In this document: positions 1-48,650 of the stretch, one piece after another
Numbering within the stretch: the stretch's first letter is position 1
How the letters are laid out: each line of letters starts with the position of its first letter
Source of the DNA: Minutocellus sp. GHC0000111
Lineage: Eukaryota
Direction of reading: 5' to 3'
Length of the DNA: 64,000 bases
NCBI GenBank assembly: GCA_977018835.1
Contig: OZ361256.1
Location: 6,820,001 to 6,884,000 of the forward strand
Translations under genes and position numbers: made by a program
Notes under the pieces: generated by a model
Told to the model about the DNA's origin: nothing
Database searches by the model: none
Seen by the model: the letters and a program-made list of their open reading frames with translations, nothing else

Positions 1-1356
1 TGCAACTCCAAGAAAAGACAGCTTCGTCGAAAAATTCATAATGTTGGTGGCCAGCACCTCCCGTACCAGCTGCCGTAGCCTCCCTCCAGCCTTGAAATCA
101 GGCATTGTCATTGGATATAATTTGTCTGCAAACCGACCCAAAAGAGCCATGTCGTCAGGCAAAGTGCTGATGGCAATGAGCCGAGGAGGACGGTGGGACT
201 TCCGAGGAGAGGGATGGCCAGCAAGAGACCTCATTGGCACATGTTGCATCGCCCGCCGAGATAGCACGTAGTGCCTGGTGTTATCAGCAGGAGCGTGGCC
301 TGATCGTGCCGTGAGCTCTGGATGATTCACCGACGGATCTTCGTGAAGGTGGGTAGTGCCGCCGTATCGCATGCTTCGACCAGATATGCTGTCCCGTATT
401 GAATCCGGCAGATCATCTCGCAAGGTTTCGGTGAGGGTCTTGGAAGTCCAGGAATCGCTTCGAACCTGGCACATCGGTACAACAAAGGCCTGGAGAAAAC
501 CTATATTGCCAGAGGAGTTGCAGGTACGAGAGAGGCCACCATCGACGCTCCAGTGGTCACCAAGGGCATCAAATACACAAGTCTCCCACCGGTCATAATC
601 TGTACAGAAGGTAGTCGGCCTGGTCGTGCCATTCTTCAAGTCCTTCCAGTCAGCAGCAGCACAATTACCGACGGGATCATATGTCATGCCCTGGTAGTTG
701 AGATATTTCACCTCCCCGGACCGGCCATCGGCGGCATATGTCAAGTTGAGAGCAAGGCGTCGCTGGTGCTTGTCGCCGAGCTTGCTGGTTTTCAGTAGCT
801 TGCGATTGATGGTGACCATGTCTGGAACATCGTCGGCAAATGGACTGGTGCTGACACCGTCGTGTCCTTCAATAACACCAGCATCGGGGTTGAGGCGAAC
901 GATGCCGATCTTGCCGGGTACTTCGTCGACACCAGATGTGCCACGGACGCTGTCTCTCTCCAGCTTCTTGACGAGCGCGCCCTTGGAGAGGGTGAACCAG
1001 GTCTCGTCGGTCCAGTCGACGTGGCGGCCGAACCGGTCCTTCAGGTACTCCTTGATGAGGCCGAAGCCGTTGCCGACGCCGTCAGCCTTGAGGAGCTTGT
1101 CCCGGTTGTTCATGTACCTCGGAGGGTTCGTCGACATGTACTCGGCCCAAGAGCACATAATTGATTCGATGTCGCCGGGCGATGCGACGTCTTCGGGCGT
1201 CAAGTCGTCGACAAAGGGAAGACCGATATGCTGAAGATATGCATTGAATCGGGTCTTGTACGATGATAACTCGGGTGGTGCCCTTGGGACTGCCGTGCGG
1301 CGAAGGCCGGCGGTGGCGTTCGTGGCGGCGGTAGCAGCAGTAGTAGCGGCGGCCAT
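1..1356 (-). CDS. Tyrosine recombinase (Crypton-like); open off the left edge of the window
   Basis: My translation from the ATG at 1356 gives 452 uninterrupted codons (MAAATTAA...). Catalytic residues sit at lambda-Int/Cre-like spacing: TYAADGR212SGEV, K241 (WKDLKN), R327-S-M-R330-YGGTT (HxxR box with R in place of H), SGH354 and Y363. It is absent from the ORF track because there is no stop inside the window. Confidence 0.8.
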   Translation of the reverse strand, partial: MAAATTAATAATNATAGLRRTAVPRAPPELSSYKTRFNAYLQHIGLPFVDDLTPEDVASPGDIESIMCSWAEYMSTNPPRYMNNRDKLLKADGVGNGFGLIKEYLKDRFGRHVDWTDETWFTLSKGALVKKLERDSVRGTSGVDEVPGKIGIVRLNPDAGVIEGHDGVSTSPFADDVPDMVTINRKLLKTSKLGDKHQRRLALNLTYAADGRSGEVKYLNYQGMTYDPVGNCAAADWKDLKNGTTRPTTFCTDYDRWETCVFDALGDHWSVDGGLSRTCNSSGNIGFLQAFVVPMCQVRSDSWTSKTLTETLRDDLPDSIRDSISGRSMRYGGTTHLHEDPSVNHPELTARSGHAPADNTRHYVLSRRAMQHVPMRSLAGHPSPRKSHRPPRLIAISTLPDDMALLGRFADKLYPMTMPDFKAGGRLRQLVREVLATNIMNFSTKLSFLGVA

Positions 1357-1718
1357 GGTGTCAAAAGACTTCTGTTTTTTATTTTGGCTCGCAGCCAAGA
1401 TGCGCTTTCAGTTGGTGCTTGGCATCGCGGGGAAAATCTTGAAGTCTTCTCGCAGCAAACATGCGAGCCAAACTTTACCCAGGAATCCCCCCGAAACACC
1501 CGGGTAAAGTTCGGAAGAAAGGCGCAAAAATGACAGAACGACGGAAAGACGTTCGTACTGGGAGTGCATTCCTCGGAAGTGGCGAGCGCCATTCTCGTGG
1601 AAAGCGGAACACCATGGCCATGCAGCTACTTGTACGTTTCATCTAACAATGAAATTTCATTCAATTCTTTCATTTTTTCAGTGCAACGAATTAATTAAAT
1701 CACATTCGATCAACTAAA

Positions 1719-3440
1719 ATGGTAGACCCAAAATCTCAGTCCCCCAGCCGTGTGTCTACACGAGCTTCTGTGCCGCTGCTCTGCCGCCGCCGCCCCGCTG
1801 CTGGCAGTGGTGGTGGTGGTGGTGGTGGTGGTGGTAAGCCAGCTGCCAAGAAGGCAAAGGTGACCAGCAGCAAACCAACTAGCCCTCCTCAGGGCAAGAA
1901 GAGGGCTGTCGAGGTCAATCTAAGCTCTGACATTGCTGCTTCTGCTGATGCCGTTTTGTCACCCCACACTGCTGAGAGAAGAAAGTTGCTGCCCCTGCTG
2001 CTGCTGTCCCCAGTGTTTCTGGTGCTTCCACCTTGAGCAAGAAGGACCTTGCTCTAAAGATTGCTCTTGAAAATGGTGTGGCTAGAAGCAGTTTCAGCCA
2101 ACATGACATTTGCATGTTTGCCACAGGAATGAAAATTCCCACCGCGGTGCTGCATGTGACACCACCAGCAACCCTGGTGGTCGCGTCTTCAGTGTTGTTG
2201 ATGCCCCGTGCAAGAGGTTTGCTGTTGATGCCTGCTATGACATGGTTCATGCATTGGCTACTGCCTTTGCTCTGGAGGCTTATGCAGGGGGGTCCCCTGA
2301 CTGGGGCAGTGTGGCCGTTGTTGTCCACGACAGCATGACTGATGCCCTGAAGGCAGTCCACGACTCTGGTGCTAGCACCTTTGTCCCCTGCATTGGCAAG
2401 GAAGAAGTCATTGCGAAAACTGCTCCAGAGCCATCAACACCTAAGGCCAGTGGCATTGCTGGTGCTGCTAAGACTAGCGAGGGGAAGGCTTCCTCCCCTT
2501 CTGCTCACTCTGGTTCTGCTGCTGCTGCTGGAAGGGGCGGTGGCACTGCGCAGTCCCCATCAGTCTCTCCGTCAAAGCACCTCAATCTGGATGACTTGGA
2601 CCTCAAGGTTGACAAGAAAACGCTTCAGAAGTTCAAAAGTGCTAAGAGTGCTGGTCCTGTCAAGTGGAAGCTTTCCTTCCATCTTTCTGTCATTGTGAAA
2701 AGACATCTGGCAGAGCCAAGGTTGTGGGGACCTTCACTCTCACTGACAGGCACACGGGAACCCCTACTGTGCTTTTAAGAGCGATGCTGTCATTGACACT
2801 CTTCAGGCACTCATTGAGGTCCCTCCCCTTGATGCACTGACTGACTTTGCCAAGAGTCTTTCTGAGGTTGCCATGCGTGACATTCCCAACGGGGCTGACG
2901 TTGGCAAGGTTTCCTTCTCAACAAAGAAGACGGGTTCAGCCTTTCCAGTTAATGCCACCATGTTCTCTCTTGACCTGTGTCTGAAAAGATCCGCCCCCCT
3001 GAGGAAGAAGTTGTCAGTCTAGTGCAGATGGTCCACCATGAAGTGGTTGGTTCAAAGATTTTCATGGACACGTGCACTGACAATTGCGTCAATGGGGGTG
3101 TCGCTGGGAGAACCTCTTTGGGAGAAATGCCCCCCCAGAAACACACTCCATCTGGCAAATCCTCAAGAACTGTGATCTTGACGTTGTCAACCCTTCTCCC
3201 TTGGACACCACCCTCATGGACAAGGAAATTCTGGTGGCAATGGCATACCTGACTTCTGGTGTTCCTCCTCATGAGTGGGCTGCTGATCCTCTCTTGAGCA
3301 AGGTGGCTGGCCTACAACGAAGAAGGTCAAGTCCCTGCAGGTGTGTTCAAGCAGGAAGACTGATCAGTGGTTTGTCTTGCACCTACATGAGTTCGTTTGC
3401 ATTCTGTTGTTTTCTGCTGCGCTGCATTAATCTGTCTTGA
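1719..3440 (+). pseudogene. Decayed gene of unknown function, divergent from the recombinase
   Basis: Successive frameshifted ORFs (1719-2036, 2110-2778, 3084-3440) with a Gly/Ala/Lys-rich N-terminus. Visibly depleted in TpA and CpG. Confidence 0.55.
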
Positions 3441-3620
3441 AAATTAAAAAAAGGGCATTGATCCAAGCAAGTCAAAATCATCAAAAACTTCGAGAAAAAA
3501 CAAAAACATCAAAAAAAATACAAAAAAAACTCAAAAAATAAAAAAATTCACAAAAAAGCTCAAATCAAAATTTGCATCAACAAAATTAATCAAACTACAT
3601 AGAGATCAAACCAAAGCCCA
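3441..3620. repeat. A-rich low-complexity tract
   Basis: Repeated runs such as caaaaacatcaaaaaaaatacaaaaaaaac. Confidence 0.7.
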
Positions 3621-4258
3621 AACTTTCATTTTCACTGACTGATTGATTTCGCGCAATTACCCGAATTAACCAACTGGTTTGTCTATAACTGTTTTTTGCC
3701 CAACAACTTTCATCTGTCTTTTTTTACATCCAGACCTTGCAGCTCAAGCAGCAGAAACAACTGTCCTCGACAGAATGAACTTGCACTGGCCCATGTTGTC
3801 ATCTCTTGAGAGCCAGGTGGTTAGCAGTGACCCTGAAACCCTGCACCTTCCTCACCTAGACAGTGGAATGATTACACCCTTTGCATTGTGCAGCTCAGCC
3901 AATTTGATGGAGGGTCAGTCAGTCTCAATTGGTGGGGATGATCAGGAGGCGAATCTGTGGGTTTAGGGCTCTGGAAGTGACTCCAAGTGCCAGTTTAGAC
4001 AACAAGGGCAAGGTGGTGGTGAAAGGAGAGCCCCTCATCACTGACCCCCCATGTGGTGTGTGCACCTAAAGTTTATCCCGCTTGATGTTCCGATGAAGTC
4101 ATTTCAGGTGTCACTTGTGCCGCCAGAAACACTGACAATGGCAAGTCTGTCTGCCGCAGTGAGGCGAGGCCTGTCAAGAGGCACTGCTAAAATGAGGTCA
4201 AAAACCACCCTTAGGTCACCCTGCAAGGTGTGGATCAAGACTGACTGATCTCCAGGCT

Positions 4259-5193: not shown

Positions 5194-5577
5194 TCTACAT
5201 CATAGTGTAATTTCTTGTCCTTTAGTATTTTCAACATTCCCAACACGACAATAATATTTGTGTCTGTGCTGCCAAAAAGTTCCGAGCACCGGTGTCATTT
5301 AGTGGTGAGCGTAGTGCTCGTAGCACCGCCCCCAATGGCAGCAGCAGCAGCAATTCCTCGCCTGTACTGTTGTTACAAAATGGTCTATGTCTAGATTCCG
5401 CCCTACAGTTTGCTAACAAACTGATATACCAAAGTGAATTGGTAGCGGGCCAACAGAATAAAGTAAATTCATTCTGAGGCTTCGTTTCTCCAGTTGGTCT
5501 GAGTTTCCCTATCAAATCGAATACGTGTGTAATGCTACTATTCGCAACAATATTGGTAACACATTGTCGGCCTTTTT

Positions 5578-6528
5578 TTGCGCTACCTCCTGTTGGAAGA
5601 TTTCTGTATGCTTATCGAGAAGCTTAGCTCCGACAAGGGGAAGCAATGCCTCTTGCCACTTTGCGATGGTATTACCGGGGCCGATAATGACGTTCTCGAG
5701 ACCACAGCACCTTCGACCGAGCCATCTTCCGAGCCTTCCACCCAACCTTCATTGCAGCCTAGTGTTTTGCCCTCGGCAGTACCCAGCGTAGCACCCAGTC
5801 CGGCCTCCAGTGCCTCTCCCAGTTCGCCACCTTCCACCGAGTATTCCAACGGCGTTGCGGAGATTCGGTACGAGGCTGCTATCAAGGTAGACGGCCTTGA
5901 CGTCTCCACCATCCCCACGAGCCCTTGCGCAGCGTTGACCAAATTGCTAACGGTTTTGACTTATTCCATCAGCCGATTCCTTCCAGAAGACACCACGGTA
6001 CAGATCACAAGCATCGGTGGTGTCCCCGTGGCTGATATCGGAACCGAAGCTGTCAGCAGACCCACCACAACGACTAGCACTTCCGACGGCCGTATCCGCC
6101 GCTACCGACTGCTCGAGGCCGATACCGGAGTGGAAATTGAATTTGAGGTTGTTTCTACAGTCGAATGCGACGATGTGGAATGCACCGATGTCGACGAGAG
6201 TTCCAACCAAGCATACGAAACGATGACTCAGGACATGATCCAGGCTGTTGATTCGGGTGATCTCACTAGGACCCTACAAGAGGAGGCCGCAGCCGCCGAT
6301 GTGGTGGCATTGGCATCGATCACCATCGATTCATTCGAGGCGGAAGAACCAACAATCACCATCACCGAGGGTAGCGACGACGACTCGGGCGCTGGCTCTC
6401 TTCGCGTCCTTACTGCGGCCGCCATGTCTGTTTTTGTCGTTATGGTCGGTTTTGCCCTGTTCGTTGGAAAACATACAACTGGATCCGCCCCTGCTTTCTC
6501 GATTCGATCTCGTCTTTGTTCTGCTTGA
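5578..6528 (+). CDS. Diatom-type surface/membrane-anchored protein with PS-x-PS repeats (5' part probably in upstream exons or lost)
   Basis: APSTEPSSEPSTQPSLQPSVLPSAVPS repeats, an acidic domain, and a C-terminal hydrophobic segment (VLTAAAMSVFVVMVGFALFV). Confidence 0.6.
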   Translation: MRYLLLEDFCMLIEKLSSDKGKQCLLPLCDGITGADNDVLETTAPSTEPSSEPSTQPSLQPSVLPSAVPSVAPSPASSASPSSPPSTEYSNGVAEIRYEAAIKVDGLDVSTIPTSPCAALTKLLTVLTYSISRFLPEDTTVQITSIGGVPVADIGTEAVSRPTTTTSTSDGRIRRYRLLEADTGVEIEFEVVSTVECDDVECTDVDESSNQAYETMTQDMIQAVDSGDLTRTLQEEAAAADVVALASITIDSFEAEEPTITITEGSDDDSGAGSLRVLTAAAMSVFVVMVGFALFVGKHTTGSAPAFSIRSRLCSA

Positions 6529-8013: not shown

Positions 8014-8940
8014 TTACATGTAATATAGATATAGAGGCTCACAGCACCCATGCCTCTTCATCAACCACTTCTTTTTCTCCTCCTCCTCCTCCCTCTCTAA
8101 TTCCTTCCCGAACTCTTCCACCATGCGCTCATGTCTTCTCGCTTCACGCGCCTTCTCTCTCATCGCCCGTCTCCTTCCCTTTTGCTTCCGCATCATCGCC
8201 CTGCCCTCAATGGTAGTTGGAACATATGCCTCTCGCTTCTTCACCCTCTTGTTCTTCCTCGCCGGACGAGAGGGCACATTGAGAATGGGCAGACGTAATC
8301 GCAGCTCGGGCTCATCATCCGATCCGCTGCTGTACCCATCGTCGAATCTGCCGCGGGCGTGGTTCCTGCTGGGTCCGATGTCGAGATTGCCGTCCATCCC
8401 ATCCTCGATGGGCATCATTGCTGGTGACGGAGGGAGCCCTCTCACATTGCCAGCTTCGTAATCATGATGCCCTTGCCGGAGGCGTCTCCTTTGTGGAAGA
8501 GGTTCATTGGAATCATCGTCACGGCCAAAGATTTCGGTATTCTCCCTGGCCAGGGGCAGGCCATCGTCCCCGTCGTCTTCTTCAATAACAACGGCACTGA
8601 TATTGTGTCGCCGACGACCATGCGTCTCGTTGACCCGCCTCGGTCGATGGTGTTGCCGGCCCTTCGTGTTGTTGATGGCGTGAACCCGGTGATCAGACGG
8701 ATGACGCCTGGCCTGTTCTCTGGGGTTGCCGGCAACCTTCCTGGACGCTTCGATGCATCGAAGAGCCTCGCTGACAACTTCTTTGGGGTGAGGATGCGCA
8801 TTGACGCGGGCCAGCAGATCCGGATCCGTCTCGGGTACGAAGGACAGTTCGTCACAGTCCGAGTCCGGCGTGACGATCGGCGCACACTCCTCGTCCGTGA
8901 AACTCGACGTGACTTCCATGAGATTCGAATTGACTTCCAT
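8014..8940 (-). CDS. Hypothetical low-complexity, charged protein
   Basis: 308-aa ORF with a coiled-coil-like basic/acidic C-terminus; no recognisable domain. Confidence 0.45.
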   Translation of the reverse strand: MEVNSNLMEVTSSFTDEECAPIVTPDSDCDELSFVPETDPDLLARVNAHPHPKEVVSEALRCIEASRKVAGNPREQARRHPSDHRVHAINNTKGRQHHRPRRVNETHGRRRHNISAVVIEEDDGDDGLPLARENTEIFGRDDDSNEPLPQRRRLRQGHHDYEAGNVRGLPPSPAMMPIEDGMDGNLDIGPSRNHARGRFDDGYSSGSDDEPELRLRLPILNVPSRPARKNKRVKKREAYVPTTIEGRAMMRKQKGRRRAMREKAREARRHERMVEEFGKELEREEEEEKKKWLMKRHGCCEPLYLYYM

Positions 8941-8982: not shown

Positions 8983-10616
8983 TGAAATATAACGACAGCA
9001 GCATGTGCATTTCTAAATGTTCCCATTCCTTGCCTCTTCCTATCCTCCGCTCCTCACTCCATGCTGAGCGGAATCTCGATATCCGACCAAAGCCTCGAGC
9101 TCCTCAAGAACGATGGAGACTTGCTCGAGCCGATCCCATGCGAGAGCGAAAGCAACCAGGAAATGGGTTGCTCGCCGTCGACGACGCCAAGATTTCCAAC
9201 ATTCTTGGCGACGACGCCGACTCACAGCATCACCACCTGATCGTCGACCGGCTTAAGGTAAGGCAATTCAAGCGCATGCCACAGCACGAAACCAATCCAT
9301 CCCAGGGAAAATGGTCACTCATTCCTAACTCTCTCTCTCTCCCTCTCTCCCAAAAATGATTGCACACCCATACACTCGTACTCTCCGCAGGTCCTTCTCG
9401 AACAAGAAAGTGGCACACATGCCGTCTCCAATTACATGCTAGATGCCACCGAGTGCAGCGGTTTGATCCCCGTCGATCCGAGTCTTCGCAGTCAAACAGT
9501 AGAGTTCATGCATGCCTACATCGACGAGTACAACATGCTCAACCAGGGCAAGTACATGTATCGTCGAGCCGCTTCTGTTGCAATGTCATACCTCGACAGA
9601 CTCCTATCAAACGAGACGCCAGGAGCCATTATCCTGCTGCTTCAGGACAAGCGCAGGTATTGGCTGGCTGCAACGGCCTGCCTCTACATCGCGCTCGAGG
9701 TCAACATCCTAGCCTCGGAGGTGTACGATTCCTTTCTGTGCTCCTTTCTGGGCGGATCGTTCCTGAGCGACATCAACCGAGAGAAATTCCGCGTTCTGCA
9801 TGCGTTAGAGTGGCGTCTCAACGGTCCCGTTGCGAACGACTACGTCGGCCTCTTTCTAGAATTTGTCCAAGGCAACAAAATGGACGCCGATGCAATATTC
9901 TGCGTCAATCCCAGCCAACGGGCCGACGAGGACACCAACGAATGGCGCTCCAGGTTGCAGTACGGATGGAAGAAGAGGAGGAGACCCAGCAATGCTCCGA
10001 GATTGCACAGAAGGCTCACGAACAGATCGAGCTGTTTTTGGCTGACCATCTTCTCATCGACATGAAACCGTCTGTTATTGCCATGGTGGCCCTAAGGACT
10101 GCCGTAGAAGAAGCAAGTAACTCGACCGACTCCTTAGACATGTGGGGAGGTGCTGTGACGTGCTTTGGTATTCTTAGCGGCATTGATCTGAGATCGGATC
10201 AACTTTCCTTCGTCCAGAAGCGCCTCGGCGAGATGAAGCTGACCCGACCAAGAGAGACAAGAATCAGGCTCAATGGGACAGTGACGCGCATCACTCTGCA
10301 GGCAGATGGCAAGCGCAAAACCGAGCTTGATGTCACCAGCAGTACCTTTGGCACTGTCCCCGAGCCAGTCGGTGACAAAAACAGGAAGAAGAAGAAGAAG
10401 AAGGACAAGGAGAAGGAGAAGAGGAAGAAAGAGAGGCCAACGAAGCGCCGGCATGCTGGCATGCAAACAGGAGGCCGTATCTCCCAGCACCGTCTCCATC
10501 CTCGCGAGGATCAGCGGTGGGCTGACATGACCGACGAGTTTGGATACGACGGAAGCCGCCCATTTCTTCCGTGGATGGAGCTGCCGAGTGACAACTACGT
10601 ATGTGGATATGGATAG
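8983..10616 (+). CDS. Diatom-specific-type cyclin, possibly disrupted (intron 9258-9390; frame change near 9900-9990)
   Basis: The splice joins RLK to VLLEQESG...NYML. Cyclin-box-like RSQTVEFMHAYID, AMSYLDRLLS, LAATACLYIALE and VLHALEWRLNGP. The second repeat (ELFLADHLLIDMKPSVIAMVAL) lies in another frame. Start uncertain. Confidence 0.7.
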
Positions 10617-11277: not shown

Positions 11278-12328
11278 CTAAACATGAATATGGCTCACCG
11301 GCGAGAACCTGCTGCAACTTCCGAACAACTTTCTCTCCGCCTTGATGTAGCAGCTCTTGCAGACACTTGCGGTGCTCACCGATGTGAAGCGGTAGGCATC
11401 ACGAGAGAGGTCATCCCGGGCCATCGAAACGAGGGAGTCCGGGTCAGCCCTGACAAGCTCCGATCGGGGATGGGCCGCCGGCCCATAGAGTCCATATAGA
11501 TAGATGCCTAGCGTGCCTCCCGACACAACCTCGACGATCTCACGGTCAGACGGCAGCACCAATCGGGGAGGGGACACAGGGTGGGCCGTGGGGCCGGATC
11601 CGACCACTGGGACCGGCTTTGGCGCCGCTCGGGAGCAATACAAGGCGCCGCAGGTGCCGCAACGGATCGTCGGCAGGCGCCGGGCGAAGAGCAGGCGCAG
11701 CCTGTTGCTCGCCAGGACCGCGAGGCGGGACTCCCAGAGGATCTCGTAGTACTGACCGCCGTCGATACAGGCCGTGATGGTGGCAACTGCCGTATCTACA
11801 AAGTCCTTGTAGGGCCGGTACGTAGCCCTGTTCACAAGGGTGACCCGCTCCATCATCCTCACGAGCTCCGGCTGGCCTGGATGATTGGCGAATGTGAATT
11901 CGTCATCACCAGCAGCGAGCTCATATTCGAAACAGCGGAGACGGTGGTGAGGAGGAAGGTCGAAGTACGAAGCAGCCATGAACAACAGGTCGGAAGGAAG
12001 CCCGGTGGCGGCAAGGACAGTATCCACGAGAATGTACATCGCCGCGCGGTAGATGCCGTAGATGGCGTTGTCGGCGACAACTCTGCCGCTGCTCCAGAAA
12101 TCCTCGGCGCTGACGGTGGTGGAAAGTAGGGAGGGTCGTGTCAAGGGCATCATGCGTTCTGCCATCTTCAACAGTGCCAGCACGACGAGGTTCGGGTGGT
12201 GCGGGACGCTGCGGAGGCCGTTCATCGCCTCCGGCATCCACTTCGCTCCGAGAAGGATGCGCATTGGTTGCCGTTGACGGCTTGGCGGAGGCTGCCTTGG
12301 GCGTCTTCATCCCGTACCACCGTTTCAA
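11278..12328 (-). CDS. Hypothetical protein with CxxC pairs; start uncertain or frameshifted
   Basis: 328-aa ORF 11278-12264 with CGTC and CKSC; an overlapping frame begins further upstream (to 12328). Confidence 0.4.
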
Positions 12329-21008: not shown

Positions 21009-24000
21009 ATGGACGACACTTCGGTCACAGACGCTGGCAATGGCGGAGATCGTCGCGCCTCGTTAACCCACAGAGACCTCGGTACCCCGACCCAAGTCGG
21101 CGAACGATTCCTACGCATCTTTCTCGATTCGCCGCACTATCATCGGGCTCTGATGGAATTGCTCCAGGCAGATCCCAGCCTGGCCAAGGACTTTTCGCTG
21201 GAGATCGACATGACCGAACTGAGTCAACGGGATCCCGAGCTGGGCATCGTGCTTCTGCGGTGTCCCTCGACGTTGCTTCGCCTGCTGGAGGACGTCATCG
21301 TAGAAGCGCAGAATGCAGTAAAATCGAAGGCGGAGAGCCAGATGCTCAGCGATCTGGCACCACAGCCACACCCAATGAACCTCACCGTCAAGGGCGAAAA
21401 GGGAAGTCGGTCCGGCGATGCTGCTAATATCACCCCCAACCGCATCCACGCTCGTCTCACCCATCTCCCGCCCCACCCCACCCACTGCAAACCGTCAATC
21501 TCTCGTCTCAACGCCACTGACACCAACAAGATCATCCAGATAGCCGGCACCGTCACCAGGACCTCGGGCGTGTGCATGTACGAATCCGCACGCTCGTACC
21601 AATGCTGCGATCAGAAGAGTGGATGCGGCGGCGCCACCAAATTCAGAATATACGCGGACATGCAACAACACAACAACGCGCTGCCGAAGCCCACCATGTG
21701 TCCCGGTCAGGATTCCGACGGCAACCCATGCGGAAGCAACAAATTTGTCGAGTTGGAGGACATGTCGGTCCACACCGATTACCAAGAAATCAAGATCCAG
21801 GAGAGCAGAGGCCAGAGCGGCGGGAGCAGGACCGGATCTGCTCCTCGTAGCCTGCTCGTCAAGTGCCAGCACGATCTTGTCAATCGATGCCAACCCGGTG
21901 ACGAGGTCGTGGTGGTCGGCACCCTGATCAGCCAATGGCAGCCCTTGGTCGCCGGCCAAGGCGGGGACGCGGGCGTGGCACTCGACGCGAATTCCATCCG
22001 CGTCGTCAATGCCGAGGACAGCCCCAGAAAGGCTCACCCCATTGCCGCACGGAACAAGACATGCCGATCAGTTTGTCCTCGGCTGTACGGGATGAGCACG
22101 ATAAAGCTGGCTCTGTTGGTCACACTCATTGGTGGTGCTGCCCAGGATAATACTGCCATTCACGATAGATCCACCGAATCGGAGGATGATGGCTCGTCCA
22201 ACACCATTCTGGGAGAGGCAGACGACGCCACCGGCACGGACAACAGACCGAAGCAGTTCAAGACCTCCTTCCATACCCTACACAAAGATCGGCGCAAGTC
22301 CAAATCGGTCCAGACCCGACGGAGGGACCAATCCCACATGTTGCTGGTTGGTGAGTTCTGCTTTTTTTTTTTGCCAAAACTCATTTCGTTAGCTCTTAGC
22401 TATTGTATTAGCCATTGCATTTGCATCATCCATGATTTTGACACCTTGAGACTTACAATAAACCACCCATACATCTCTAACCCTTTCCTTCTCTCTCTCT
22501 CCCTCTCTCTCCCACCTACCCGTACATGTATATACTTTCTCCGCCCCCTCCATTCCCTCTCGACTGCTCCCTGCACTTATCTCACACCAAAGGTGATCCG
22601 GGCACCGGTAAATCTCAGTTTCTGCGCTTCGCCGCAGCGCTGTGCCCCCGAAGCGTAATGACGACCGGCACCGGTACCACCTCGGCTGGTCTTACCTGTG
22701 CCGCCGTACGGGAGGGCAACCAAGGAGAATATCAGTTGGAGGCGGGGGCCCTGGTCCTTGCCGACAAGGGCGTTTGCTGCATCGACGAATTTGGCTGCAT
22801 CCGATCAGAGGAGCGCACGGCAATTCACGAGGCAATGGAGCAACAGACGTTGTCGGTCGCCAAGGCCGGCATCGTTGCCAAATTGAACTGTCGAGCCACG
22901 GTGATCGCCGTCACAAACGCCAAAGGAGGCCTCTACGATCACGGCAAGACCCTCACGGAGAACACTGGGATCGAATCCCCACTGATGTCTCGCTTCGATC
23001 TGGTGTTTCGTCTGGTCGACGAAGGCGACTCGATACGGGATGAGAAGGTGGCAACCTTCCTGCTAAACAAGGCCATCGTGGGACCTTCCTGCCATTCTTC
23101 TACCCCTAATGGCACGACCGAATCAACCCAAGGGGATTACTGGTCGATGGAGAAGCTCCGCATCTACATCGCCACGGTCCAGTCTCGATTCCGCCCAGCA
23201 GTGAACAACGAAGCTGTGAAACTCCTCAAGGCGCACTACCAAGCCTGCCGAGCAAGCATGTCTCAGACTACCTCAATAACGGTGCGCTTCCTGGAGTCGC
23301 TCATTCGATTGTCACAGGCTCACGCCCGGCTCATGTATCGCAGTCAGGTCACCCTTCACGATGCCGCCGCCGCAATTCTGCTCATGGAGTGCAGCGCCGG
23401 CTGCCTAGACGGCATCGAGCAAAGTCGGGCTCCTTTCACCACCGATGATGACTATCGGCCCCTCTACAGAGACCCCATGGTCACTATTTTTCCCGATGAC
23501 GACGTGGCGGATATTGAATTTCTATGCGACGAGTACATACTGCTTGACCGATATGACATGGTATTTCGTCTATCAGAAGAGGAACGCGAAACTGCGGCGG
23601 CACATCTCCGGAAGCATCGACGCAGTCCCGGCGATCAAGATAGACCTAATCCCAACGAAGTCGACGAGAACAACAACGTAAGAGTACAAGACGACGACAC
23701 TGAAGATGGCAATGGTGGAGGGGGCGCTAACCAAGATGGAGGCGGTCTTGCCACCGGCGGCGAGGGGAATAGGAGAAATACCACTCGAGGAGCACACCGA
23801 AATGCAGGCCACCAAGACAAATCACTTGTGCGTGGACGATCAGCAACTATCAGCGAATATGCCTATGGAAATTTTATTCAGCCATCGGCAACCACCACCC
23901 AATGCCCACCCACCGGTATCGAGCGGACTGAATTGACGGCACAGAGACCGATAGCTCGGCCTCGAGGCAACGCTAGTCAACGTATTTGCAACACAGGTCA

Positions 24001-24172
24001 AGGCATCTGTCCAGAACCGAATTCCCCTAACCCTTCCTCCTTCCCCTGGACAAGTCCACCGCCACACCGATTACCCGCGTCAGACGAAATAGTAGGTTTT
24101 GCCAAGCCACCATGGACTCCACACAGCAACATCAATGAGAGTCCTAAGCGCAGGAGGCGCACGGCCGACTGA
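21009..24172 (+). CDS. MCM9: MCM9-like helicase; exons 21009-22350 and 22593-24172
   Basis: N-terminal Zn/OB region (YQEIKIQE, CQPGDEV). The splice builds Walker A LLVGDPGTGKSQ. Also TSAGLTCA, LEAGALVLADKGVCCIDEF, SRFD and TVRFLESLIRLSQAHARLM, with a long disordered tail. IDEF and the tail favour MCM9. Confidence 0.85.
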
Positions 24173-25676: not shown

Positions 25677-25819
25677 GGAACACCACATCTTTGTCCCCTG
25701 AAAATACACTTGTTGTCTCACCGTGTGCGCATTACATGCACATGCATGCATGCATGTGTGCATGTCGCTTGGCATGTCGTTACAACCTCAATTAAACATA
25801 AAACACAAATATATGTACA

Positions 25820-26760
25820 TTGTTTAACCGCGATGATGCCATCAGAGCTACAAAACTTATCGTCTCCCATTTCAAGCGATTCGGCCTGACAGTACATACC
25901 GGTAGTAGATCCCTCGGAGAAGGCTCCAAGACAGAAGCCCTGTACATCCCGCCACCTAGGAAGGAATCGCACACCAAGGAGGAGCTACTGGTAGCAACTG
26001 GAGACATTGTTATCGACGACGACCGACACATATCGTACACCGATGAATTCGGCAGCCTGCTTGAGAAGCAACTGAACGATATTGTTGATATAAATGCCAG
26101 AATCAAGCAAGCCAAAGGCCAATTCCAAGCGATGAGAGATAATGTCTTCACCAACCAAGGATATACCACTACCCGAGCGACTACGATACTACAATGCCCT
26201 CGCCGATGACACAGTTCTATGGGGATGCGAAAGCTGGGCGCACAAACCATCACTGATCAAAAAGCTAGAGTCCATGCATCACAACTGCCTCCGTCAAATC
26301 ATTGGGTACAACTTCTACCGGGACGGTAAAGTCACAAACGAAGAAATTAGAGCTGAAGCTCTTAGTGCCTATACGATGGAAACCAATCTAGAACTAAGGA
26401 GATGCAGATGGCTAGAGAAGATTGCAAACATGGGAGAAAACAGACTGCCTAGCTAGAAAATTATTTGGAGCCTTCTGCCATGGAAAATCTAGACGACGCG
26501 GCAAAGCCAAAGTCACAATTCGACATGGATGCCGTGACACTCTAGAGAAAGTAGGCTTCGGATCTAGAGCAAACGACCTAAGTGAATGGATACCAGCTGC
26601 CAGAGATCCAGTTCTACGGGTTGAAATAGTGGAGTATCGACTAGGATTAGACGACGATTTCTGATACTATTTTCGGTTGCTACAGCGGATTTTACATTTA
26701 GAGATTAGGGAACTCAAGCCCAATAACCTAGGCGAGTACTCATCATCATCATCATCATCA
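25820..26760 (+). mobile_element. 5'-truncated, frameshifted non-LTR retrotransposon (RTE-like), copy 1
   Basis: RT C-terminal/thumb motifs FGLTVH...SKTEA, DINARIKQA, VLWGCESW, HHNCLRQI and RRCRWL; ends in a (CAT)n tail at about 26741-26760. Confidence 0.8.
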
Positions 26761-26902
26761 CATGGCCGGCATCACTCCTGGAGTCGTCAGCAAACCAGAT
26801 GTTGATGTGAGTGTGTTGCCAGTGCCATTGTCACCTACATGTACACTACCAACACACAAATTGTACCAATCACGGCGATTGGAGTAGAATGGGATCTCGA
26901 GA

Positions 26903-27646
26903 TTAGAAGGCGATGCCATCCTGAAAGGTCTTAATCTTGTATTCTTGCCACTTGGTCTCGGCCGACATTTCACGCTCCACCGACGACAGCACTCGTTGAA
27001 TGACATCCTCTTCGACCTCTCCCTCACGGCAACCCAACTCGGCTTCCTTCTCCAGCATTTCTTCCGTCGGCGCATCGGATACGGGAATGGGGGGCCCATT
27101 GTTCATTGCGATATTGTGCTCGGCTTCTACTTTGCTCACCAGGCCAAAGAACTCGGATCTATGGCGCAGCATCATCTTTGTCATCTCCTTTTCATGGATA
27201 TTCATGAGAGCAATCAGCCGGCTATTTGGAGACTCGATCAATGTGCGAGCAGCCTCGTCATCGCCACCACGACCCTGCTCTTTGGAGCGCCTTACAGTCG
27301 CGCTTCTGATGCCCTCGGTCACTTCTCGAGCGGTGCCACCGACGAGGACGTCGGTGCTTACACTGCGGGTGGTGGCACCAGTGGCACCATCGCTACCATC
27401 ACGATGATCGACTTGGGCGCCTCCCACCTTCTCGACTTCCATGACAAGCCGTCTCGGGCTGTATCCAAGGGGATAGGACTCATTTATGAGCCATCTGCAA
27501 TACTTTAGACAGTCGGTTATGGCCCTTCGCTCGGTGCGCAGTTCCTTGAACGCTTTCATTGCGCGAAGACGATCCTGCTTGGTCACCGCCACCACCGATG
27601 GCTGGATACATGTAGACCTATCGCCACGAGCAGGAGCAAGAGGCAT
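26903..27646 (-). CDS. Hypothetical protein, copy 1
   Basis: 247-aa ORF; no recognisable domain. Confidence 0.4.
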   Translation of the reverse strand: MPLAPARGDRSTCIQPSVVAVTKQDRLRAMKAFKELRTERRAITDCLKYCRWLINESYPLGYSPRRLVMEVEKVGGAQVDHRDGSDGATGATTRSVSTDVLVGGTAREVTEGIRSATVRRSKEQGRGGDDEAARTLIESPNSRLIALMNIHEKEMTKMMLRHRSEFFGLVSKVEAEHNIAMNNGPPIPVSDAPTEEMLEKEAELGCREGEVEEDVIQRVLSSVEREMSAETKWQEYKIKTFQDGIAF

Positions 27647-27851
27647 TCTGCGGTACGGATTAGTGACGGGTCAATGCTCCTAGCTAATATTGATAATATA
27701 TGCTCAACAACTGCGCTGCTCGATTTAGGAGAAACAAGTTCCTGCTGGATGCTTCTGCACTCTGGCTCATTACGAACTCGTATGAACGAGCGGAAAGACA
27801 CCAGGTGACGAGGAAAGCGGAAATTAAACATAAAACACAAATATATGTACA

Positions 27852-28792
27852 TTGTTTAACCGCGATGATGCCATCAGAGCTACAAAACTTATCGTCTCCC
27901 ATTTCAAGCGATTCGGCCTGACAGTACATACCGGTAGTAGATCCCTCGGAGAAGGCTCCAAGACAGAAGCCCTGTACATCCCGCCACCTAGGAAGGAATC
28001 GCACACCAAGGAGGAGCTACTGGTAGCAACTGGAGACATTGTTATCGACGACGACCGACACATATCGTACACCGATGAATTCGGCAGCCTGCTTGAGAAG
28101 CAACTGAACGATATTGTTGATATAAATGCCAGAATCAAGCAAGCCAAAGGCCAATTCCAAGCGATGAGAGATAATGTCTTCACCAACCAAGGATATACCA
28201 CTACCCGAGCGACTACGATACTACAATGCCCTCGCCGATGACACAGTTCTATGGGGATGCGAAAGCTGGGCGCACAAACCATCACTGATCAAAAAGCTAG
28301 AGTCCATGCATCACAACTGCCTCCGTCAAATCATTGGGTACAACTTCTACCGGGACGGTAAAGTCACAAACGAAGAAATTAGAGCTGAAGCTCTTAGTGC
28401 CTATACGATGGAAACCAATCTAGAACTAAGGAGATGCAGATGGCTAGAGAAGATTGCAAACATGGGAGAAAACAGACTGCCTAGCTAGAAAATTATTTGG
28501 AGCCTTCTGCCATGGAAAATCTAGACGACGCGGCAAAGCCAAAGTCACAATTCGACATGGATGCCGTGACACTCTAGAGAAAGTAGGCTTCGGATCTAGA
28601 GCAAACGACCTAAGTGAATGGATACCAGCTGCCAGAGATCCAGTTCTACGGGTTGAAATAGTGGAGTATCGACTAGGATTAGACGACGATTTCTGATACT
28701 ATTTTCGGTTGCTACAGCGGATTTTACATTTAGAGATTAGGGAACTCAAGCCCAATAACCTAGGCGAGTACTCATCATCATCATCATCATCA
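27852..28792 (+). mobile_element. Same non-LTR remnant, copy 2
   Basis: Same ORFs as copy 1 at +2032. Confidence 0.8.
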
Positions 28793-28934
28793 CATGGCCG
28801 GCATCACTCCTGGAGTCGTCAGCAAACCAGATGTTGATGTGAGTGTGTTGCCAGTGCCATTGTCACCTACATGTACACTACCAACACACAAATTGTACCA
28901 ATCACGGCGATTGGAGTAGAATGGGATCTCGAGA

Positions 28935-29678
28935 TTAGAAGGCGATGCCATCCTGAAAGGTCTTAATCTTGTATTCTTGCCACTTGGTCTCGGCCGACAT
29001 TTCACGCTCCACCGACGACAGCACTCGTTGAATGACATCCTCTTCGACCTCTCCCTCACGGCAACCCAACTCGGCTTCCTTCTCCAGCATTTCTTCCGTC
29101 GGCGCATCGGATACGGGAATGGGGGGCCCATTGTTCATTGCGATATTGTGCTCGGCTTCTACTTTGCTCACCAGGCCAAAGAACTCGGATCTATGGCGCA
29201 GCATCATCTTTGTCATCTCCTTTTCATGGATATTCATGAGAGCAATCAGCCGGCTATTTGGAGACTCGATCAATGTGCGAGCAGCCTCGTCATCGCCACC
29301 ACGACCCTGCTCTTTGGAGCGCCTTACAGTCGCGCTTCTGATGCCCTCGGTCACTTCTCGAGCGGTGCCACCGACGAGGACGTCGGTGCTTACACTGCGG
29401 GTGGTGGCACCAGTGGCACCATCGCTACCATCACGATGATCGACTTGGGCGCCTCCCACCTTCTCGACTTCCATGACAAGCCGTCTCGGGCTGTATCCAA
29501 GGGGATAGGACTCATTTATGAGCCATCTGCAATACTTTAGACAGTCGGTTATGGCCCTTCGCTCGGTGCGCAGTTCCTTGAACGCTTTCATTGCGCGAAG
29601 ACGATCCTGCTTGGTCACCGCCACCACCGATGGCTGGATACATGTAGACCTATCGCCACGAGCAGGAGCAAGAGGCAT
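28935..29678 (-). CDS. Hypothetical protein, copy 2
   Basis: Identical translation to 26903-27646. Confidence 0.4.
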   Translation of the reverse strand: MPLAPARGDRSTCIQPSVVAVTKQDRLRAMKAFKELRTERRAITDCLKYCRWLINESYPLGYSPRRLVMEVEKVGGAQVDHRDGSDGATGATTRSVSTDVLVGGTAREVTEGIRSATVRRSKEQGRGGDDEAARTLIESPNSRLIALMNIHEKEMTKMMLRHRSEFFGLVSKVEAEHNIAMNNGPPIPVSDAPTEEMLEKEAELGCREGEVEEDVIQRVLSSVEREMSAETKWQEYKIKTFQDGIAF

Positions 29679-29967
29679 TCTGCGGTACGGATTAGTGACG
29701 GGTCAATGCTCCTAGCTAATATTGATAATATATGCTCAACAACTGCGCTGCTCGATTTAGGAGAAACAAGTTCCTGCTGGATGCTTCTGCACTCTGGCTC
29801 ATTACGAACTCGTATGAACGAGCGGAAAGACACCAGGTGACGAGGAAAGCGGAAAAGGCCGCTCTCTCAAAAAAGGAATAGGAACGGCGCTTTCACACCA
29901 ACAAGTCAATTCCCAGCGCTTTGCATGAGTCATTGAATCGTCTCATACTTTTCACCAACATTCTACC

Positions 29968-31792: not shown

Positions 31793-32905
31793 TTACTTTT
31801 CACCATCAACATATACACGGGCACCGACCACCTTCTCCGTCGACCAGGCACGCGAAGAAGGGAGATGCGCTGGCTTGGTACCTCGTTGCTGTCGAGCATC
31901 CCCGTCATCAATCAGCTCCGCTTTCGTGCTGTTGCTTCGCACAGGAGTGACAGCGTCCGCAAACGAAACAGGAATTTCCGTTGCCGGGCTAGTGATTTGT
32001 GCTACACCGGATGAAAGGGAAGCCGTGCCAGCAGTGGCTACTTCCGCTGACTTTTCGACAGGACCATCGACTTTGCCGGGAGAGCTTTCAAGGACCACGC
32101 CATCGCCGGCACCGCCAAGTCCTCCTATAGCTGCTGCTTCATCGACGGCGGCAGCAGTGGCACCGGTGTTGGCAGAGGGCAATTCGTCGTCACTGTAGAG
32201 ATACCTGATGTTGTAAAGGGCGCGGTACCTGCTCTTGCTGCCCGTGACGGCAGTGGGGGAGGTGACATCAATGAATTCACCGACACGCTCATCGCTATCC
32301 TTGGCTGACAACACGTGAGGAGTTGGGCCCGTGTATTGGAATGCATCTGCCCACTCCTTTCGCGATTTATCGCCTTCCGCAACGCGCTTTTCCTCGGAAG
32401 CCAGATATTCCGCCAGGATGGAATTGAGCTCCCTGACGGCTCCGTCGGAACTTTCAACAACCATCAGCATGGACTCCTGCTGTGGAGGTGGTCCACTTCC
32501 TTCCGCAGAAGCTCTGCCGGGAACAGTGCTTCCGATGATAGACGGTACGTCGACGCGCCAAACGGTCATCATTTGCACCGGTTGATACGGCTCCTGCGCC
32601 GGTCCTCCTTCGGGCGCGGGGACTGCCAAATGCGAGGAGGGCACAAGGCTGACCGCTTTCGTCATCCTGTGAACGACACGGACGAAGGGAGCATATCGAC
32701 CCTGAACAAAGGTGTCATACGTCTGCCTAAGGGTTCCAGGGCGCGGCCCTCTCGCCTTTGACTTTCTCGTGGAGGAGTTGCACGATTTCTTCTTTACGGC
32801 ACCACCACCGGCAAAACTGCCGACATCACCGGGAGAAGGACCGGCTGCAGATGAAGTTGTACCGGTGGGAGATGGCGTGTCGTCCATCACTGCAACTTGC
32901 GACAA
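31793..32905 (-). CDS. Hypothetical protein
   Basis: 370-aa ORF; low-complexity ends around a globular-looking core. The true start or splicing is unclear. Confidence 0.45.
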   Translation of the reverse strand: MSQVAVMDDTPSPTGTTSSAAGPSPGDVGSFAGGGAVKKKSCNSSTRKSKARGPRPGTLRQTYDTFVQGRYAPFVRVVHRMTKAVSLVPSSHLAVPAPEGGPAQEPYQPVQMMTVWRVDVPSIIGSTVPGRASAEGSGPPPQQESMLMVVESSDGAVRELNSILAEYLASEEKRVAEGDKSRKEWADAFQYTGPTPHVLSAKDSDERVGEFIDVTSPTAVTGSKSRYRALYNIRYLYSDDELPSANTGATAAAVDEAAAIGGLGGAGDGVVLESSPGKVDGPVEKSAEVATAGTASLSSGVAQITSPATEIPVSFADAVTPVRSNSTKAELIDDGDARQQRGTKPAHLPSSRAWSTEKVVGARVYVDGEK

Positions 32906-33295
32906 CGCCTTGCGCGGTCAGACAAATCTTGCGTTTTGATGTGTCTAATGAAACCCACCACCGACTTGAAATGAATAAGCAACATTCACTACATCGAAGA
33001 GTAACTCGTTCCATTTTAGTTCGGTGCTGATTGGCTGACCTTCCACGTTCTCAATTATTTCGATACCATGCTTCTAGCTACGTAGCCACGTACCTAGGTA
33101 ATAGTAGTACCTAGGTACAGTAGCATTCAGCCATTCGCATTCCGAGGTAGATTCGTCATCGATACTCCTCTCTTGAAATATTATGAAATTTTCCCGAAAA
33201 CAATCATTTAAGGGAGTGACAAGAGAACCGAAGATGAATCGAATCATTCGACTCATTTCACAACAAAGCAGTTTGCGATTGCGTCACACAAGTAC

Positions 33296-33922
33296 CTAGG
33301 TACGTTGGTGTTCCTCCATGCGGTGGACAGCCGAACGACCATGTGCTTCAAGCCTTCCCATGGCCGCGGGGCCTTCACCGCTTAGGTGACACACCGTCAT
33401 CAACCACCGCATCGACATTATGCTGCTCTCAAGGCACGACGATCGTGCGGAGTAACTTGGATCCAGCGCGCGGCGGTCGCGGTGCACCCTGGCCAGCCAT
33501 TCCACTTTCTTCGAGAGGGTACCACCGTTTGCGATCATCAGCATGCGATTAAAATCAAACTCATGCATAATACCCTTGGCCTCGCCAAGACTCTGCGGAA
33601 GCGACCACGGGCCTATTTCGTCTCCGCTACTCTGGGGGATCTGGCCACGCGCTGCCTTCATGGCGAGGAAGGAGGAGAGCAAAGCCCGAATCACGTGCTG
33701 ATCTTGGTAGAACTGTCGGTCGTTGTACAACTCCGCGGCAACTGGTTGATAAACGACCGGAATCTCGCGAACGATGCACCCAGGGCCGAAAGACGACAGG
33801 CCGCCGGGAATCTCCTTATTTTGCACAACCACATACGAAGAGTCTGGGTCACCCTCGAAGTACACAGCGAAATATCGAAGTTCGCATTTGCCCCCACCTC
33901 GCAAGACGTTGGTCGGTTCCAT
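33296..33922 (-). CDS. Hypothetical protein with N-terminal LRGG
   Basis: 208-aa ORF beginning MEPTNVLRGGGK. Confidence 0.4.
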   Translation of the reverse strand: MEPTNVLRGGGKCELRYFAVYFEGDPDSSYVVVQNKEIPGGLSSFGPGCIVREIPVVYQPVAAELYNDRQFYQDQHVIRALLSSFLAMKAARGQIPQSSGDEIGPWSLPQSLGEAKGIMHEFDFNRMLMIANGGTLSKKVEWLARVHRDRRALDPSYSARSSCLESSIMSMRWLMTVCHLSGEGPAAMGRLEAHGRSAVHRMEEHQRT

Positions 33923-35810: not shown

Positions 35811-35924
35811 TGCTCCACCATGTTACTTTGCTAACATCACCAATGAGCAGCTGCCAATGAATAAAAATAAACAAGTGTTGAGACCATTGTTGAGACTGCT
35901 AAAAAAACAGAGAGAAGCCGAAAG

Positions 35925-36006
35925 CGACACCGGTAGGATTCGAACCTACGCATCACAAGGATATTCGATTTCTAGTCGAACGCCTTAACCGCTCGGCCAC
36001 GGTGTC
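35925..36006 (-). tRNA. tRNA-Ser(AGA)
   Basis: Reverse complement GACACCGTGGCCGAGCGGTTAAGGCGTTCGACTAGAAATCGAA...GGTTCGAATCCTACCGGTGTCG. It has a 7-bp acceptor stem, A and B boxes, AGA anticodon, long variable arm, G discriminator and a downstream oligo-T. Confidence 0.95.
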
Positions 36007-36290
36007 TTCTCGTCTTCACAACGTGGAGTTCCGTCAAAAAATATATAATCTAAGCGGCACTACTGGTACTGCCGCTCATGCGGGTACTACCGATGCATCT
36101 ACAATCGGCACTTCTTTGGTTGGTAATACCACTAAGGACAACACCGAGGGTAACGATGATGATATAAATGCATTGCTCAAAGAAATAGAGGAGGAAGATG
36201 AGGAGGATGAAGAATCCGGAACAAATATAGGATCCACTACACAAGCATAAGATAGATCTATGTTCGTGCCTACCCTGTGGCTCATAAATA

Positions 36291-36850
36291 TATATGTTAG
36301 TCCCAAAATGCGCACTGTCCCAGTTCGCGAACTGGGATCCCAGTTTGCGAACTGGGATTTATTTATCCCAGTTTGGAAACTGGGATCACAGGCACAATCT
36401 CAGTTTGCAAACTGGGATCGATCGAGAAATAATGAATATTTTGCAAGGATGATATCGCCTTCGCTTCTCCTCGCTTCATTTTTTAATTTGCAAATTCAAG
36501 ATGTGATGCACAGTGCAACTTGTATTGTAGATAGATCTACCAGTACATGTACAAAATAGTCGTTGTGCATGAGCCAACACCGGCGCGGCAGTGACCATTC
36601 TGGCACTTGCCGAGAACACCAGTTTCCAAACTGGTATTTATTATTGTTCCAGTTCGCGAACTCGTCTGGTTCCCATATTCGGATTAGCTTATTTATCTCA
36701 GTTTACATTCTGGTAGTATCAGTGCGCAAACTGGGATCCTAGTTTGGGAACTGGGGCCCAGTGCGCAAACTGGGATAAATGAATCTCAGTTCGCAAACTG
36801 GGATCCCAGTTCGCGAACTGGGACAGTGCGCATTTTGGGACTAACATATA
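36291..36850. mobile_element. Non-autonomous TIR element (MITE), 560 bp
   Basis: tatatgttagtcccaaaatgcgcactgtcccagttcgcgaactggg... is mirrored at the right end (about 64 bp perfect, about 95 bp imperfect). TA/TATA ends; many internal cccagttNgcNaactggg palindromes. Confidence 0.9.
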
Positions 36851-36877
36851 GATCTAGCAGAGGTCAAATTTTATAAT

Positions 36878-37720
36878 CTAGCTGTCAAGGTCCCAATATT
36901 GATCGTTCCTATTCTTTTTGTGGACTGGTTGGAAGTAGTCACCGGATTTCCTCTTCGCCCCACCACTGTTGGCTTTCGAATTCACCCGAAACAAGTGGGT
37001 GTCAATTGCAGAATTCGACTTTGCACTGGCCTGGCGGCACGCATCGATAGTGGGATTTACATTTCCAGAGCGAAACATAGAAAAATGATGCTCACAAACA
37101 TCAGATCCGCTCCTTTGCTGATACATGACCCGAGACTTGTCCTCTTTGAGGTAGGTGAGGGCTACTCCAACGATGCCAAATATTGTCCAGCAAAGGTCCT
37201 CAAACGTCTCCTTCGTAATAAATTGATCGGTAAATCCGCCACATTCGACTCTCCACTCCTCAAGATACACCGCCGTATCAAGTAGCTCTCGGACGTGCTT
37301 GTGCGAAGGAGCGTCGATGGGTTCGCACCCCTTGTGTCGACTTCCGTTCATTCGGGTGCAATTTACAATATCAATAAACCGATCCATCTTTTCAAGGAGC
37401 TCGGCAAGAGGAGCATAAAGATCTTTGCCGCCGATGCCGGGCTTCTCACAGTTATCGTTGATAATTTCGATGGAATCCAAGCTAGTAATTTGGACGGAAA
37501 GGGGGACATTGAGACGAGAATAGGAATCTTTGAGGAAGTGCTGAATTCGCTTCCGGTACTTTCGCAAACTCCCAGTAGTGATGAGGTTGTCGCCGCTAGC
37601 TTCCCAGCATCTTCGGATCATTTGCAGGCTCAGCTTCTTCCCATTCTTTCGTAGATTTCGAGAGTTATTCTTCCAACCAGATTTTTCGAGGGTATTCACC
37701 AGCTTCTTGATGCAGTGAGC
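36878..37720 (-). pseudogene. 5'-truncated P-element/THAP9-like transposase
   Basis: AHCIKKLVNTL (remnant of the DxxH-LxK region) and QQRSGSDVCEHHFSMFRSGNVNPT (QDxxExxF...R...NP catalytic-Glu region). Confidence 0.6.
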
Positions 37721-38317
37721 CGAGACCAGGGCACGGACAACACTGAAGACGGCGTCAACGTTGGCTGAGGTGATGTCAGATCATCGCCGGGGACGGACGA
37801 CTGCACCGGACGAAGATGAGGGACAACAACGGCGGGCCGCCGGAGGCTTGGGCATGAGAAGATACGGAGGGCGGCGAAGAGCCAGATTTCAAGAATTCGG
37901 CAAAAATACTTCCGATCAAATAGGAACGACCGCCGCGGTGATTTGGTATCGAAGAAAGGTGGAACCGTCAGGGATCGAGGACCGTGATATCAAATTCGAC
38001 CTCCATGGTCTCATGGTTGGGTCCTACTTTGGCGGGTTGGGAAACCGGCACAAGTTTTTCTGCGCGTAGCGTCTGGTACAAAGTGAATGTACACTACCAA
38101 CGTATTTTGGGATTCGTTCGACTAAAATGTACGAGGTTCTTTAAAAAAGAGCTCGCAAAATCCGAGGTCATCGTCGCGGCCGTTTCCCAACCCGTTGCTT
38201 CGCATGCTGTCAGCCAACGCAACAAGCAACAAGCATGATGATGAAGCATGACAGCACACGGCGGCACACGACGACCGCCCCCACGCCACAACCATCACAT
38301 CATGCCCCACCCCCACC

Positions 38318-48645: not shown

Positions 48646-48650
48646 CCCAC

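Follow-up and report, generated by a model that had tools for sequence, protein, structure and literature searches.

Whether a tyrosine recombinase (YR) gene and the genes to its right, among them relatives of MCM8, MCM9 and PrimPol, form one giant mobile element is the question raised by a 64-kb stretch of DNA from Minutocellus sp. GHC0000111 (contig OZ361256.1, positions 6,820,001 to 6,884,000; the whole stretch is referred to as the window). An original prediction, made from the sequence alone, had proposed that positions 1-37800 are such an element, with the YR as Starship-like captain of a 36-kb cargo. Genes were located in the window by six-frame open reading frames (ORFs) and Pfam, and contig depth, which is not itself a copy number, was used as a proxy for copies. 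Depth was compared in three runs, X1, X5 and X15, the last of which carries a different organism label and has no library type on record; RNA contigs came from runs X6 and X8 of other studies. The preferred explanation, which was given an even chance of being correct, is that two adjacent things are present: a stand-alone Crypton-like YR and a conditionally dispensable, vertically inherited block of approximately 30 kb that is lost by deletion.

Contig depth divided positions 1-37800 into at least three copy-number classes, which contradicted the single element originally predicted. In X1, depth from approximately 6.5 to 34 kb was 76-131, compared with 94-123 for the adjacent housekeeping genes ECH and eIF2A. 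The ratio of block to housekeeping depth (31 of 38 block bins, seven repeat or empty bins having been dropped, against four ECH/eIF2A bins) was 0.91 in X1, 0.49 in X5 and 0.055 in X15, and depth in X15 exceeded 10 in three of the 31 block bins. A step in depth occurred at approximately 36-38 kb, X5 and X15 agreeing roughly on its position; low-depth X15 pieces extended to 35.7-36.9 kb and a 4.9-kb X15 contig near 37 kb had a depth of 47. Block depth was never above housekeeping depth in any of the three runs. These results indicated that the block is likely a distinct accessory segment, with a right edge near the one originally proposed, and that most cells of the X15-type sample likely lack it; its mobility as cargo was not borne out. 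Its left edge could not be placed, since 1-6.5 kb consists entirely of repeated DNA.

The strongest competitor, although judged unlikely, is that the block is simply single-copy core DNA in a region where genes are sparse and repeats abundant. The depth steps would then be due to the kind of library (X15 as an RNA library with DNA background), to sample mixing, to filtering or to a right-hand duplication. The X1 ratio agrees with this explanation, as do the presence of spliced MCM9 and PrimPol in RNA runs of other studies, the unrecorded library kind of X15 and the location of block, ECH and eIF2A proteins on one 1,017,951-bp contig in the public protein collection. Cluster size also failed to separate block from core (eIF2A, 46 members; the ECH control, 2; block genes, 1-4) and was rejected as a measure of accessory status. 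Against core DNA, X15 looked like DNA: its low-depth coverage took in the MCM9 intron as well as intergenic sequence, it showed no splice joint and it included the 4.9-kb contig at depth 47, and its step coincided with that of X5. An X1-like contaminant was unlikely, as a repeat at 41504 had a depth of 26,073 in X1 and 0 in X15. Furthermore, X15 block contigs measured 0.8-2.6 kb at depth 4.5-7.3, and in none of 5000 simulations were they free of 31-mers shared with a deep, 3%-diverged homolog. This simulation, which assumed assembly by a 31-mer graph, disfavoured a deep close homolog of the block in X15. Divergence of X15 from the window was 3.0% for block pieces (n = 8) and 3.1% for housekeeping pieces (n = 2), which is what vertical descent would give.

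The YR ORF leaves the window at its left edge, in agreement with the original prediction. It matched no Pfam or PHROG family, and a profile search of solved structures gave coiled coils only. A predicted model (pLDDT 82) structurally matched Cre, Flp, lambda integrase and Ndc10, with Cre as top match (E 3.7e-4), and the catalytic residues R212, K241, R330, H354 (H/W) and Y363 were kept. Across 63 relatives (333 were found), R212, K241 and Y363 were invariant and R330 nearly so. The cluster at 90% identity had 72 members; the 15 listed sit on contigs of 0.5-3.3 Mb, and one identical sequence occurred on 10 contigs. Fifteen copies that were compared differed by 1-10 substitutions from P0010. YR depth in X1 was 3660-4010. 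Depth put the YR at approximately 35-39x, and its ratio to block depth was 38.6 in X1 and 95 in X5.

At copy P0019, the upstream match to the window reached back only to approximately 1533. A contig joint 1529->5192 (X1 depth 64, 26 letters on its short side) skipped a 3.66-kb segment with CAAAAAT on both sides. A second joint, 1539->5341, was set aside because it had only 21 letters on one side. The upstream end of the YR element, at approximately 1531, thus lies on the side of the block, and the gene reads leftward. DUF3435 was not found in any of five YR-family sequences (E<=1) or of 50 relatives (E<=0.01). Given its orientation, the position of its end, its lack of DUF3435 and a depth approximately 39 times that of the block, this YR is not regarded as captain of the genes to its right.

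The YR is instead likely a stand-alone Crypton-like transposon in a repeat pile, and it apparently represents a large, unclassified, recently active Crypton-like family (333 relatives). With Cryptons as described in PMC3212892 and PMC13465315 it shares a single large YR with a Cre/Flp/Ndc10-like fold, multiple copies, a stramenopile host and, at its visible end, a short direct repeat and no terminal inverted repeat. It differs from them in ending in CAAAAAT rather than TATGG, in its C-terminal coiled coil and helical domain, and in lacking GCR1_C (a CryptonF domain) and DUF3504; neither these two domains nor an integrase family was matched by Pfam in 55 YR family members, and TATGG was not found at 1515-1545. 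Crypton membership is provisional, the second end of the YR element lying outside the window. Starship captains carry DUF3435 and sit at the 5' end of their element (PMC11162782). The window resembles Starships in that a YR neighbours a large block of accessory genes and in presence/absence variation; unlike a captain, this YR lacks DUF3435, does not sit 5' of the block pointing into it and far exceeds it in depth, and no end repeats were found.

Deletion is the likeliest mechanism of block loss; mobility was not demonstrated. In the proposed sequence of events, the YR would excise and reinsert its own element only, via short direct repeats, and the block would be inherited vertically, carrying the lineage's own MCM9 and not a captured second copy. 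As the main roles of MCM8/9 and PrimPol are in meiosis and damage tolerance, clonal cells could lose the segment, which is bordered by repeats, through ectopic recombination. The loss could afterwards become near-complete in a population by loss of heterozygosity or clonal sorting, and relaxed selection could allow orphan genes, gene fragments and transposons to accumulate in the block. In clonal diatom cultures, deletions of 30.9 kb and 156.9 kb arose within 30 days (bioRxiv 2020.11.08.373134). Copy changes of approximately 31 kb thus arise fast in that system of somatic deletions, duplications and loss of heterozygosity, and repeats could mediate them; the window block differs in two respects: in one sample its depth is reduced almost to nothing and not by half, and it clusters functionally linked repair genes.

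Several observations weigh against loss by deletion of an inherited block. Deletion leaves the occurrence of MCM8, MCM9 and PrimPol within 18 kb unexplained, and MCM9 was linked to other block genes at none of 22 other MCM9 loci, of which only seven spanned at least 10 kb. A 99.2% copy of the MCM8 3' fragment is present on a second contig of 1,573,675 bp (public proteins). In X15, four of nine repeat bins scaled with housekeeping depth as in X1 and five did not. In X5, the membrane-gene piece (17-18x) equally fits a diploid block with extra right-hand copies. Positions 1-667, which hold the catalytic half of the YR, had depth 4 in X15, similar to the block, as linkage would also give. No contig joint across an empty block site was found in the stretches examined in X1, X5 and X15 (at most 20 kb each), so that the comparison of strains for an empty site, suggested with the original prediction, yielded a near-absence in depth and no joint.

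Named relatives of the window MCM proteins were from diatoms. In a midpoint-rooted FastTree of exon 1 (71 rows: the window and 70 of 119 matches, kept if at least 340 residues aligned or the match was named), window MCM9 fell among relatives that included named diatom MCM9s, with long branches near it; its sister was P0038 (SH-like 97), whose cluster is split at the same intron position. Large ORFs neighbouring P0038 (locus L001) look, by eye, like ordinary housekeeping genes. No second MCM9 was found between 46% and 100% identity among the 120 listed of 136 exon 1 matches, and no MCM8/MCM9 relatives at 60-95% were found within the length and word limits of the search, a result that is suggestive only; eIF2A relatives at 91-93% were common (10 of 14 compared). 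GC content at third codon positions (GC3) was host-like, at 0.55-0.75 in the block and 0.51-0.83 to its right. Exact look-ups of window proteins in the public collection gave no entry for 10 of 20. In diatoms, MCM8 and MCM9 were single entries in six species (PMC4647503), and across eukaryotes they have repeatedly been lost together (PMC2667178). At one MCM9 locus of another organism, a second MCM lid-like piece lies approximately 6 kb downstream of MCM9 (L007:18428-18661).

In an explanation considered rather improbable, the block is a true giant cargo element, or a genomic island, which collected repair genes of the host and moves or excises as one unit; the mobiliser would lie outside the window, act in trans or be the P-element-like transposase that borders the block on the right. 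This would account for the otherwise improbable clustering of MCM8, MCM9, PrimPol and the RPA70N fusion, not seen at the 22 other MCM9 loci, for the chimeric genes (membrane piece-MCM8, RPA70N-U-box-Sel1, extended PrimPol), for a low copy level in X15 shared with YR 1-667, and for a right edge that adjoins a tRNA gene and a transposase. The orientation of the YR and its end speak against this explanation, as do a block that was never multi-copy and was as diverged as the core in X15, and the lack of a second MCM9 among the matches listed. No repeats of at least 20 nt were found at the block ends, whose exact positions are undefined, among the window repeats listed or in self-BLAST. The tRNA-Ser gave no shared word of at least 13 nt within the window (the longest, 12 nt, lies outside the block). 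As in the original prediction, no terminal repeats, att sites, capsid or PolB gene were found in the window searches. Of the two findings that it had named as speaking against itself, a stand-alone Crypton-like YR is likely present; conserved synteny of the cargo genes was seen at none of the 22 MCM9 loci, most with short flanks.

Cyclin, U-box, Sel1 and primase-like genes are also found in large viruses. A YR integrase in a stramenopile genome is likewise a feature of endogenous giant and polinton-like viruses (PMC13236599, PMC12220804). The window differs from these in its spliceosomal introns, its host-like GC3 and the lack of any capsid, PolB or packaging ATPase match in the Pfam scan of the window (PHROGs matched none of 15 proteins). 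No viral-contig relatives were found for three queries, and a scan of prokaryote genomes was also empty.

The remaining explanation, considered quite improbable, places the block at one edge of a larger segment (sex-linked, mating-type or supernumerary) which keeps meiotic genes together in 2, 1 or 0 copies. Ratios near 1, 0.5 and approximately 0 would fit it, as would upregulation of MCM8/9 in diatom meiosis (PMC4647503), cyclin- and DOT1-like genes and a left edge that may lie beyond the window. A 1,715,937-bp homologous contig would also fit: the alleles on it are those of ECH and of two orphans, and MCM9 exon 1, PrimPol exon 1 and the RPA fusion have no cluster member there. Against it, X1 has the block at about diploid level, neither a mating-type gene nor diverged gametologs were found, and assembly collapse of a homozygous stretch could explain the members missing from the 1.7-Mb contig, which were not taken as evidence of absence.

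Table 1. Features of the window, from left to right, with the observations on which they are based.
Feature	Position	Strand	Observations
YR ORF, N-terminal 452 of 786 amino acids (aa)	1..1356	-	Runs off left window edge; high-copy
CAAAAAT, upstream end of YR element and left copy of 7-bp direct repeat	1525..1531	+	End of P0019 match; joint 1529->5192
Medium-copy (~5-6x) segment	1532..5191		Includes ubiquitin-like ORF 4271-4924; ends in second CAAAAAT (5185-5191), with a loose contig end at 5191
Short high-copy repeat	5340..5510		Bin depth 1041 (X1), 947 (X15); several loose ends
Duplicated membrane/surface-protein gene piece	5560..6468	+	~1.7x depth; variant contigs end at ~6468
Single-copy block, likely presence/absence-polymorphic	6465..~37000		Depth ratios; right edge ~36-38 kb
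MCM8 3' fragment, ~280 aa	6465..7309	+	Pfam MCM_lid and last 40 positions of MCM; best named matches MCM8
Orphan ORF	8014..8940	-	No family
Cyclin-like gene	9436..10616	+	Split between two frames at about 9.95 kb by a frameshift or small intron; Cyclin_N below Pfam cut-off (E 1.4e-4)
Orphan ORF, Cys-rich	11278..12264	-	No family
PrimPol-like gene, two exons, 940 aa	13189..16172	+	Intron 14822-14982; Pfam UL52 zinc finger
DOT1-like gene	17263..18459	+	In-frame stop 18151-18153, then same-frame 101-aa ORF; covered by X8 RNA contig
RPA70N-U-box-Sel1 fusion	18990..20399	-	94%-identical copies on other contigs
MCM9, intact, two exons	21009..24172	+	Pfam; one GT-AG intron ~22350-22592, spliced in X6
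Exact 2032-bp tandem duplication	25790..29855		X1 depth 0 on one copy, ~99 on the other
Two orphan ORFs	31793..33922	-	98-99.6% alleles on another Mb-scale contig; covered by X6 RNA contigs
tRNA-Ser(AGA)	35924-36006	-	No duplicated piece elsewhere in window
Miniature inverted-repeat transposable element (MITE), 100-bp terminal inverted repeats	36285..36856		Polymorphic insertion; skipped part begins TA
P-element/THAP9-like transposase, 3' part	36878..37780	-	Right edge of block; X6 RNA contig
ECH and eIF2A housekeeping genes	from 38.3 kb		Pfam

The gene content originally described for the block was largely recovered (Table 1). MCM9, PrimPol and the RPA70N-U-box-Sel1 fusion were confirmed, as was the succession of orphan ORFs, nested repeats, tRNA-Ser and housekeeping genes. 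A relation to MCM8 was also found, but not a helicase: the fragment holds the end of the AAA domain, the lid and the C-terminus, and the N-terminal domain, OB domain and Walker motifs are missing. It is joined at approximately 6465-6468 to the membrane-protein gene piece, a label that reflects sequence features without a Pfam match. In X1 and X5, contigs start at precisely 6465; MCM8 would accordingly have another upstream context as well, possibly that of an intact gene. Zero depth of MCM8 in X15 is a hole and was not counted as evidence. With MCM8 present only as a C-terminal fragment, the window is unable to encode an MCM8-MCM9 helicase; this, together with a block depth never above that of housekeeping genes, gave no support to the suggested self-replicating element or episome. 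The DOT1-like ORF was present but not intact, and the cyclin- and ubiquitin-like ORFs were found below Pfam cut-offs, the latter in an approximately 6x repeat outside the single-copy block.

For the PrimPol-like gene, an X8 RNA contig joined 14821 to 14983, and the spliced frame was open; like MCM9, the gene is intact and of diatom type. Human PrimPol was the top, weak match (E 0.048) of its first motif in a sequence search of solved structures, in which exon 2 had no match. Its N-terminal extension (13189-14300, approximately 370 aa) contains two Cys4 repeats, each ending W-x-C...C...C-x2-C, which presumably resemble the RanBP2-type zinc finger; the extension had no Pfam or atlas match. The C-terminus stops soon after the zinc finger, with no obvious acidic tail. 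The RPA70N-U-box-Sel1 protein may serve as a decoy E3 ligase for RPA70N-binding proteins. A single-sequence fold of the orphan at 11281-12264 was unusable (pLDDT 34).

Other copies of the 1532-5191 segment continue approximately 2.8 kb past 5191, and their sequence beyond this point starts TATGG, which may be chance; TATGG is the terminus of most CryptonS elements (PMC3212892). The segment is depleted in CpG (0.44) and TpA (0.34). Within the block, the tandem duplication is likely an assembly artefact or private to the window's assembly. At 25219, 25447 and 25701, a 31-base gap and single-base indels were unmatched by X1, and the indels also by X5; like the duplication, these are private variants or errors of that assembly. 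Short, approximately 4x repeats at 12700-13040, 16886-17111 and 34454-34832, one with perfect 31-bp inverted ends, are candidate substrates for ectopic recombination. The MITE gave an empty-site joint 36290->36847 in X1, X5 and X15, and MITE bin depth in X1 was 7,500-12,500. The label of the P-element/THAP9-like ORF (atlas, 0.95; TNP-like families on 14-70% of members) is a lead only.

To the right of the housekeeping genes, 41500-48800 likely holds a DIRS/Ngaro-type retroelement, with gag-, reverse transcriptase-, RNase H- and YR-like ORFs recognised by eye and no Pfam match; its left end is the very high-copy repeat at 41504. Between 46000 and 48500, its TpA observed/expected ratio was 0.12 with normal CpG, and two of its ORFs, of 445 and 338 aa, contain no tyrosine. 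This composition suggests that mutation of TpA to CpA/TpG is directed at repeats, opposite in sense to fungal repeat-induced point mutation. A 147-bp repeat of 95% identity at 48646-48792 and 58251-58397 is possibly a solo retroelement end. Two related RING-Sel1 genes lie head to head at 61671-63729; in the aligned stretches their DNA is 68-74% identical.

On present evidence, Starships are not extended beyond fungi. A comparable diatom block was not found in the literature searched, which consisted mostly of the main texts of open articles. In a further reading, which is doubtful, the block would be an accessory island with an MCM8-MCM9, PrimPol and RPA70N-fused ubiquitin ligase module, gained, excised or lost as a unit and present in 2, 1 or approximately 0 copies in natural populations; such a non-fungal eukaryotic cargo island may decide a strain's capacity for sex. 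If strains within one diatom lineage do differ by a single block with MCM9, MCM8 and PrimPol, the joint loss of MCM8 and MCM9 across eukaryotes would become visible within one species, and its effects on sex, mitotic recombination and damage tolerance would become approachable by comparison of carriers with non-carriers.

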